Of a stretch of DNA of 10,826 nt, positions 9,086 to 9,337 are shown in pieces. Every line of letters starts with the position of its first letter. The stretch's first letter is position 1. Location of the stretch: the IMG/VR virus record IMGVR_UViG_2541047122_000009. The stretch is one strand, 5' to 3'. Origin of the DNA: a virus (Duplodnaviria; Heunggongvirae; Uroviricota; Caudoviricetes). The position numbers were made by a program, and so were the translations under genes. Under the pieces are notes generated by a model. It worked only from the letters and a program-made list of their open reading frames with translations, did not search any database and was not told the origin of the DNA.

Positions 9086-9337
9086 ATGGAATTTCATGAA
9101 AGTGCGATTTGTGATTTTCGCGCTAACGCAAATTCAGTAAAACCACAGCCAATTGCAGTTCTTTTTAAAACAATGGGTGCGTGGGCTGTTTTATGCTTCG
9201 CCGCTGACGACACTGACGCAAGAATGGCAATAGGACAAGAGATGGAGATGGACCCGACAAACGATGAATTCATAATTTATGGCGCTCCATCTAATTACTT
9301 ACTTGATACCTGCAACATTTACAACAAGGCTGCCTGA
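9086..9337 (+). CDS. Hypothetical protein, 83 aa, in the ral/sieB slot downstream of N
   Basis: ATG at 9086 with GAGGTGA 5 nt upstream; product MEFHESAICDFRANANSVKPQPIAVLFKTMGAWAVLCFAADDTDARMAIGQ...NKAA. No family recognised. Confidence 0.65.
   Translation: MEFHESAICDFRANANSVKPQPIAVLFKTMGAWAVLCFAADDTDARMAIGQEMEMDPTNDEFIIYGAPSNYLLDTCNIYNKAA

Follow-up and report, generated by a model that had tools for sequence, protein, structure and literature searches.

The 83-codon gene directly downstream of the antiterminator gene N in this Caudoviricetes virus, here called ORF83, is well supported as a genuine accessory-gene cassette that occupies the hypervariable 'Ral' slot of the lambdoid early-left (pL) operon. 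Coordinates are those of the window, by which we mean the whole 10,826-nucleotide stretch of DNA that was analysed. On its + strand, in the direction of pL transcription, the window carries cI, a 173-aa ORF, pL, nutL, N, ORF83, ea10, cIII, kil, gam and bet. The features of the region are as follows.

8537–8565, + strand: pL promoter, TTGACC-17-TACTAT, from a promoter scan.
8611–8651, + strand: nutL, from the annotation of the identical VT2-Sakai record AP000422.
8755–9027, + strand: N antiterminator, 90 aa (PF25694 N_peptide, E=3.4e-32; phrog_271).
9026–9085, + strand: left linker, a non-coding relic of a phage-21-type N 3' end (MTCVGRQKMKLGSKPLI, then a stop) plus the Shine-Dalgarno (SD) sequence GAGGTGAT.
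9086–9337, + strand: ORF83, 83 codons, ATG at 9086 and TGA at 9335–9337, an acidic soluble protein annotated as 'hypothetical'.
9092–9320, + strand: the part of the cassette foreign to lambda by blastn, standing in for orf28 and ral.
9326–9357, + strand: terminator-like hairpin with a 9-bp stem (-13.9 kcal/mol) and the TGA stop in its loop, followed by UUUAUUUUU.
9342–9519, + strand: right linker or intergenic block, holding a second terminator-like hairpin (9472–9493) plus a U6 run.
9520–9888, + strand: ea10 (DUF2528; PF10800, E=7e-47), the first lambda-like gene downstream, with 98% DNA identity to lambda.

Comparison of the window with lambda by blastn, together with inspection of the lambda sequence, places the cassette precisely. 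Positions 9061–9091 match lambda 34381–34352, a segment that contains the SD, the ATG and the second codon (GAA) of orf28, and the match resumes at 9321 and runs to 10825 (lambda 34103–32599) at 98% identity. The last 17 nt of ORF83, from 9321, are also those that end ral, stop codon included, and are followed by the ral–ea10 spacer. Because the lambda matches end at 9091 and resume at 9321, ORF83 substitutes precisely for orf28 and ral; the lambda sieB segment is absent from the window. The preliminary description of this DNA had proposed that the first gene after N replaces ral and sieB, that the genes beyond it are lambda-like, and that the mosaic breakpoint falls exactly at this gene. The first two proposals are borne out by the Pfam match that identifies N, by the orf28–ral position of ORF83 with sieB missing, and by the 98% DNA identity of ea10, cIII, kil, gam and bet to lambda. 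The third holds in a refined form, in that there are joints at both ends, and these lie inside the first and last few codons.

The sequences on either side of the cassette have histories of their own. The N relic (9026–9079) corresponds to the last 17 codons of a phage-21-type N and sits right behind the stop of the resident N, whose C-terminus is of the H-19B/933W type (...AAGYRKSKQLTAR). In a prophage of strain M6, N is still coding across this block (ending ...MGVTCVGRQKMKLGSKPLI), with a stop codon that overlaps the following gene's SD; since the H-19B/933W-type N stops at the start of the block, the left linker has been left non-coding. Of the left linker, lambda keeps about the last 30 nt, upstream of orf28 and downstream of sieB, and its own N has a diverged form of this block as its 3' end. 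The left linker (61–64 nt) precedes other cassettes in roughly 1000 further complete E. coli genomes, and the right-linker block is also present behind DUF7167, DUF7446 and 156-aa-gene cassettes and behind lambda ral. Linkers 9026–9091 and 9342–9519 flank at least five unrelated gene sets. As a variable gene between conserved flanks, ORF83 is an accessory gene by the operational definition of Silas et al. (bioRxiv 10.1101/2023.04.06.535777). At divergent loci the similarity to the window extends only from about 9058–9068 (9134 in one locus) to about 9324–9356, and the mobile unit therefore consists of the SD, the ORF and the 3' hairpin. What is added here to the existing description of this hot spot is the exact anatomy of the cassette: the shared linkers, the fossil N 3' end and the hairpin that fixes a K-A-A C-terminus.

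Three alternative cassettes illustrate the slot. One encodes DUF7167 (62 aa, very acidic) followed by the 156-aa protein WP_000167595 (locus L016, 1859–2596), another DUF7446 (80 aa; locus L017, 1861–2103), and the third, in a 933W-like EDL933 locus, WP_000167595 alone (locus L018, 1859–2329); all are uncharacterised. Together with the 'Ral'-region genes of Silas et al., these appear as interchangeable small genes in the slot that ORF83 occupies behind N, although the sequences of the alternative cassettes and of orf184, judged by eye, seem unrelated to ORF83.

The window is 100% identical to the Stx phage VT2-Sakai/Sp5, and positions 9028–9519 are 100% identical to dozens of other E. coli O157:H7 Stx1 and Stx2 phages as well. 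ORF83 is H0090 ('hypothetical protein') in VT2-Sakai, is also named VT2-Sap20, and has the RefSeq accession WP_000394299.1; it matches PHROG 2471 (phrog_2471, annotated 'unknown function') over its full length (residues 1–83 against 1–83 of 83, E=1.4e-61). As that group has no functional annotation, membership in it is silent on mechanism. The gene is thus not newly noticed, these entries being earlier, and it is already known both as a catalogued protein and as an accessory gene of its hot spot. A text search of the literature by accession and locus names gave nothing relevant, with ORF83 appearing only in one supplementary table.

About 399 of 5426 complete E. coli genomes (about 7%) carry ORF83. 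A profile search that covered 1.84 billion representatives exhaustively yielded only two full-length clusters at 50% identity (P0001 and P0020), and a scan of genome contigs found only two loci, near-identical and both from Escherichia. By these searches the family occurs only in lambdoid elements of enterobacteria. Two further high-scoring proteins, P0021 (3126 aa; E=1e-35 from 44 summed stretches) and P0022 (1357 aa; E=1e-13 from 12 summed stretches), were rejected as homologues; they are tandem-repeat proteins whose scores are the sum of many weak stretches and hence repeat artefacts, which is a caution for profile searches with short queries.

The position of ORF83 is similar across hosts. 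It is the first gene after an HK97-type N in HK106 and mEp234, after an N_peptide-type N in Citrobacter loci, and after a lambda N36-type N in Klebsiella, and in Enterobacter it lies directly behind an ORF in the N position that has no Pfam match. The remaining Citrobacter locus (L009) has two small uncharacterised ORFs ahead of ORF83, which is the first pL gene beyond them. In S9-5, a P22-like Salmonella phage, ORF83 lies behind N-sieB, the true ral position. The genes downstream of ORF83 vary between loci, and ral is absent from every ORF83 locus examined.

The coding evidence is strong. The SD is 8 nt long (9076–9083) and very strong, ends 2 nt ahead of the ATG and has its GAGG core 6 nt from it; N and ORF83 are separated by 58 nt. 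Full-length homologues with 70–86% identity are present in prophages and phages of Citrobacter, Klebsiella, Enterobacter and Salmonella. Nei-Gojobori estimates of dN/dS are 0.08–0.10 against the Salmonella, Citrobacter and Klebsiella copies (dS 1.7–2.5) and 0.24 against the Enterobacter copy, with synonymous sites near saturation in these comparisons (dS up to about 2.5). The reading frame is intact in all homologues, its 83 codons being open across five genera; 42 residues are invariant among these genera, and residues 18–79 are almost invariant, with the peak of conservation in the protein core, far from the 3' hairpin. Judged on sequence, it is beyond reasonable doubt that ORF83 is a genuine protein-coding gene under strong purifying selection. 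The converse proposal, that ORF83 is a chance ORF and the conserved element an RNA composed of linker plus terminator, can point to the conserved 3' hairpin, which dictates the last three ORF83 codons. However, the low dN/dS (0.08–0.24) at near-saturated synonymous sites effectively refutes it, and the frame that stays open in five genera, the conservation that is strongest in the core and the strong SD all count against it as well; we give it almost no credence.

Antisense ORFs annotated in some records (8837–9097 and 9094–9273) were rejected, as their starts are lost or stops gained in homologues. An Rfam search for a small RNA in or beside ORF83 returned only the cIII thermoregulator (Lambda_thermo, 9948–10006, + strand, 88.5 bits, E=1e-21), a match expected for a lambda-like cIII leader. 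The anti-sRNAs AsxR and AgvB of EHEC prophages were ruled out at ORF83, since both map to the PR' moron site.

The hairpin with its U-run spans 9326–9347, and its 5' arm encodes the C-terminal K-A-A of ORF83. It is kept in all divergent homologue loci (-13.9 to -17.2 kcal/mol) with both stem arms changed, and the mEp234 record annotates it as a rho-independent terminator. The sequence AARGCNGCCTGA encodes a K-A-A-stop that ends unrelated lambdoid genes, namely ORF83, Ea10, Ral, NinB (with one mismatch) and orf184; the window contains four matches with at most one mismatch where 0.54 are expected. K-A-A-stop sites in the window are at 9326–9337, 9877–9888 and, on the - strand, 1857–1868. The arrangement in which the motif forms the 5' arm with the stop in the loop is strong in ORF83, weak in lambda ral, and has a short 5-bp stem in ea10.

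The pL site found by the promoter scan coincides with the 'putative major leftward promoter' of VT2-Sakai (locus coordinate + 6027 = window coordinate), and the scan for hairpin-type terminators found none between pL and 9326. With no terminator-like site from pL to the ORF83 stop and the first two after it, ORF83 is probably on the immediate-early transcript together with N. A promoter-like match inside ORF83 (9249–9276, 9 of 12 positions) is weak and no commoner than in shuffled sequence. We infer that ORF83 is silent in a CI-repressed lysogen and that read-through into ea10–bet would need N. Between cI and pL, in the position of lambda rexAB, lies the 173-aa ORF (H0093, phrog_2602; 7505–8026, + strand), for which searches of Pfam, NCBIfam and PADLOC gave no match. 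A terminator-like hairpin behind it (8328–8349) is annotated in VT2-Sakai as the terminator of the pRM transcript, and H0093 is therefore probably expressed in the lysogen.

The ORF83 protein is 9 kDa, with a pI of 4.2, a net charge of -7 (-3 in homologues) and a GRAVY of about 0, and is thus not hydrophobic; zero transmembrane segments are given for the identical protein in the table of Silas et al. (bioRxiv 10.1101/2023.04.06.535777). It has three scattered cysteines, of which only C37 is invariant in all full-length homologues, and C76 is present in all homologues with an intact C-terminus. The predicted secondary structure is helix, beta-hairpin, helix, short strand, helix. Two AlphaFold models have pLDDT values of 52 and 56 and gave no significant fold match. 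Neither Pfam at E<=1 nor NCBIfam matched ORF83, and 12 family members searched against Pfam at E<=10 gave nothing except one chance match. No family of PADLOC-DB, a collection of anti-phage defence components, matched at E<=0.1, and the best hit of a profile search of PDB sequences (E 0.09) is a chance one. A likeness of the beta-hairpin-helix core to HicB/UPF0150 was seen by eye only and was dropped, as it had no profile support. The protein had been described as having no recognisable family, with remote homology and structure prediction proposed as a check; those searches agree with the description, with PHROG 2471 as the sole match.

ORF83 has already been included in a published screen for anti-defence activity and toxicity. 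The library of Silas et al. (bioRxiv 10.1101/2023.04.06.535777) comprises 200 synthetic accessory genes, which were expressed in ECOR strains either unchallenged or exposed to phages T2–T7, P1vir and lambda-vir. Their UDP0060 (Supplementary File 3) is AFM76313.1 of mEp234 and is identical to ORF83; it is entered without comment in the table and is absent from the main text. The genes given a phenotype, whether counter-defence or cell death, are orf7, 24, 48, 63, 92, 98, 116, 126, 143, 145, 148 and 184, a list that does not include UDP0060, nor does the Nat Commun 2025 paper (PMC12373910) name it as an intermediate hit. For MG1655 challenged with lambda-vir, which is the EcoKI test, ardA, ral and ocr are the only hits entered in the log, and the exclusion hits logged are UDP79, UDP183, cor and imm, not UDP0060 (10.1101/2023.04.06.535777). 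We have judged UDP0060 from named hits, not from per-gene fitness values, so that weak effects, failed expression or universal toxicity are possible. The same study ranks 'Ral' accessory regions second, eleventh and fourteenth among its hot spots, and reports for 'Ral'-region genes that ral acts against type I restriction-modification and that orf184 is the trigger of gop-beta-cII (10.1101/2023.04.06.535777). An earlier suggestion that slots next to N commonly hold anti-defence factors accords with this known hot spot, where 'Ral' is the second-highest-scoring accessory region. Like ORF83, orf184 has a K-A-A C-terminus; it has a reported phenotype, whereas ORF83 has none.

The most direct functional proposal is that ORF83 is a one-for-one replacement of ral that alleviates type I restriction through the HsdMS methyltransferase or the restriction complex. 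It shares with lambda Ral and the upstream orf28 the slot, the strand, the SD/ATG context of orf28, the last 17 nt of ral and the downstream hairpin and linker. Each is a small product of the pL operon that lambdoid phages can do without, ORF83 lies behind N-sieB in S9-5 as ral does in lambda, and no ORF83 locus carries ral. The proteins themselves are nonetheless dissimilar. No BLASTP alignment of ORF83 to Ral was obtained even at E<=100, and with no Pfam match at all ORF83 has none to the Ral family (Pfam PF11058) or to Lar; nor does it match Lar/RalR as TIGR03655 or PF14354, with their CPFCG zinc-ribbon-like motif. Ral is basic (pI 8.8) with four cysteines in the block C-x5-C-x2-C-x5-C, whereas ORF83 is of opposite charge and does not have this block. 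Furthermore, UDP0060 was in the library of the pooled EcoKI test that logged only ardA, ral and ocr, so the type I restriction-alleviation assay suggested in the preliminary description is a weakened prospect. Finally, the nin region already encodes a Lar-family restriction-alleviation protein (2260–2496, - strand; TIGR03655, E=7.6e-17; PF14354) and a phage Dam N6-adenine methyltransferase (1333–1887, - strand; TIGR01712, E=4e-79), so the phage has anti-restriction functions even where ral is missing. We regard a Ral analogue as quite improbable. The window also encodes a 203-aa ORF6N-domain protein (268–879, - strand; PF10543, E=5e-19) that is antirepressor/KilAC-like, with weak matches to PADLOC PDC-S05.

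Comparison with the DNA mimics T7 Ocr and ArdA is instructive, as these are small, acidic and early proteins, and early timing is likewise predicted for ORF83. However, ORF83 is far less acidic, with a net charge of -7 against -28 for Ocr, and the comparison of net charge does not indicate the very high density of surface acidic residues typical of such mimics. Ocr and ArdA are elongated helical mimics, whereas the low-confidence model of ORF83 is mixed alpha/beta, and both were logged as EcoKI hits where UDP0060 was not.

The absence of sieB from the window, and the association of the slot with exclusion genes in the preliminary description, raise the prospect that ORF83 is a functional sieB replacement acting in superinfection exclusion or inter-phage competition. 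SieB, a membrane protein, has its gene on the opposite strand and is made in the lysogen, whereas ORF83 has no transmembrane segment and lies on the pL strand, and hence would be pL-transcribed and silent under CI repression. Moreover, the two genes occur together in S9-5, and the exclusion hits of the screen do not include UDP0060. Such a role appears highly improbable.

The main rival to a defence target is a housekeeping or developmental one. ORF83 could act by binding a host housekeeping factor, such as a protease for which N or CII is a substrate, and so modulate host physiology or phage development, tuning the lysis-lysogeny decision or early expression; models for this are cIII, an FtsH inhibitor, and Kil, a division inhibitor. 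The tight linkage to N nearly everywhere, probably on a common immediate-early transcript, is consistent with such a role, as is an operon shared with cIII, kil and gam, all of which are aimed at host housekeeping proteins, and a non-defence role fits a screen that reports no counter-defence phenotype. Against this, ORF83 co-occurs with unrelated N families, which makes a specific partnership with N unlikely, and most lambdoid phages have other cassettes in place of ORF83, a pattern typical of dispensable arms-race genes and not of core regulators. We consider a modulator of this type unlikely, as we do a housekeeping or developmental target in general.

Our preferred reading is that ORF83 is an early pL cassette encoding a counter-defence binder with a target other than EcoKI, although we hold it tentatively and at rather less than an even chance. 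The protein would be produced together with N right at the onset of lytic growth, and as a small, mildly acidic, predicted cytoplasmic alpha/beta protein with no enzymatic signature it would most likely act by stoichiometric binding to a host protein during early lytic growth. The most probable target would be a component of host defence, though not the EcoKI-type type I enzyme, with which Ral deals. Position, predicted early timing and the precedent of its slot-mates are what suggest an anti-defence role. The preliminary description had put forward anti-defence or host modulation, and the position supports this, but the published screen names no phenotype for the identical protein; these data, the only experimental ones, are negative for the systems sampled, EcoKI included, and count against the preferred reading. 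A more specific version, which we think somewhat unlikely, is that ORF83 acts as an immediate-early inhibitor, has a small fold not seen before and is directed at a defence system that is unrepresented or not limiting in the ECOR/T-phage screen. An example would be a defence that acts on temperate lambdoid phages at infection or induction in the Enterobacteriaceae. An inhibitor of this sort would explain why prophages of five genera, among them the Stx2 phage of O157:H7 Sakai, have retained the gene as the first one after N.

As matters stand, ORF83 is a catalogued 'hypothetical' cassette like many others, located in a recognised hot spot, and a pooled expression screen with an EcoKI host that already held it did not name it as a hit. 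If it does disarm a host defence, it would represent a new anti-defence family on Shiga-toxin-converting phages, and its carriage in about 7% of complete E. coli genomes would bear on the spread of stx phages between strains.
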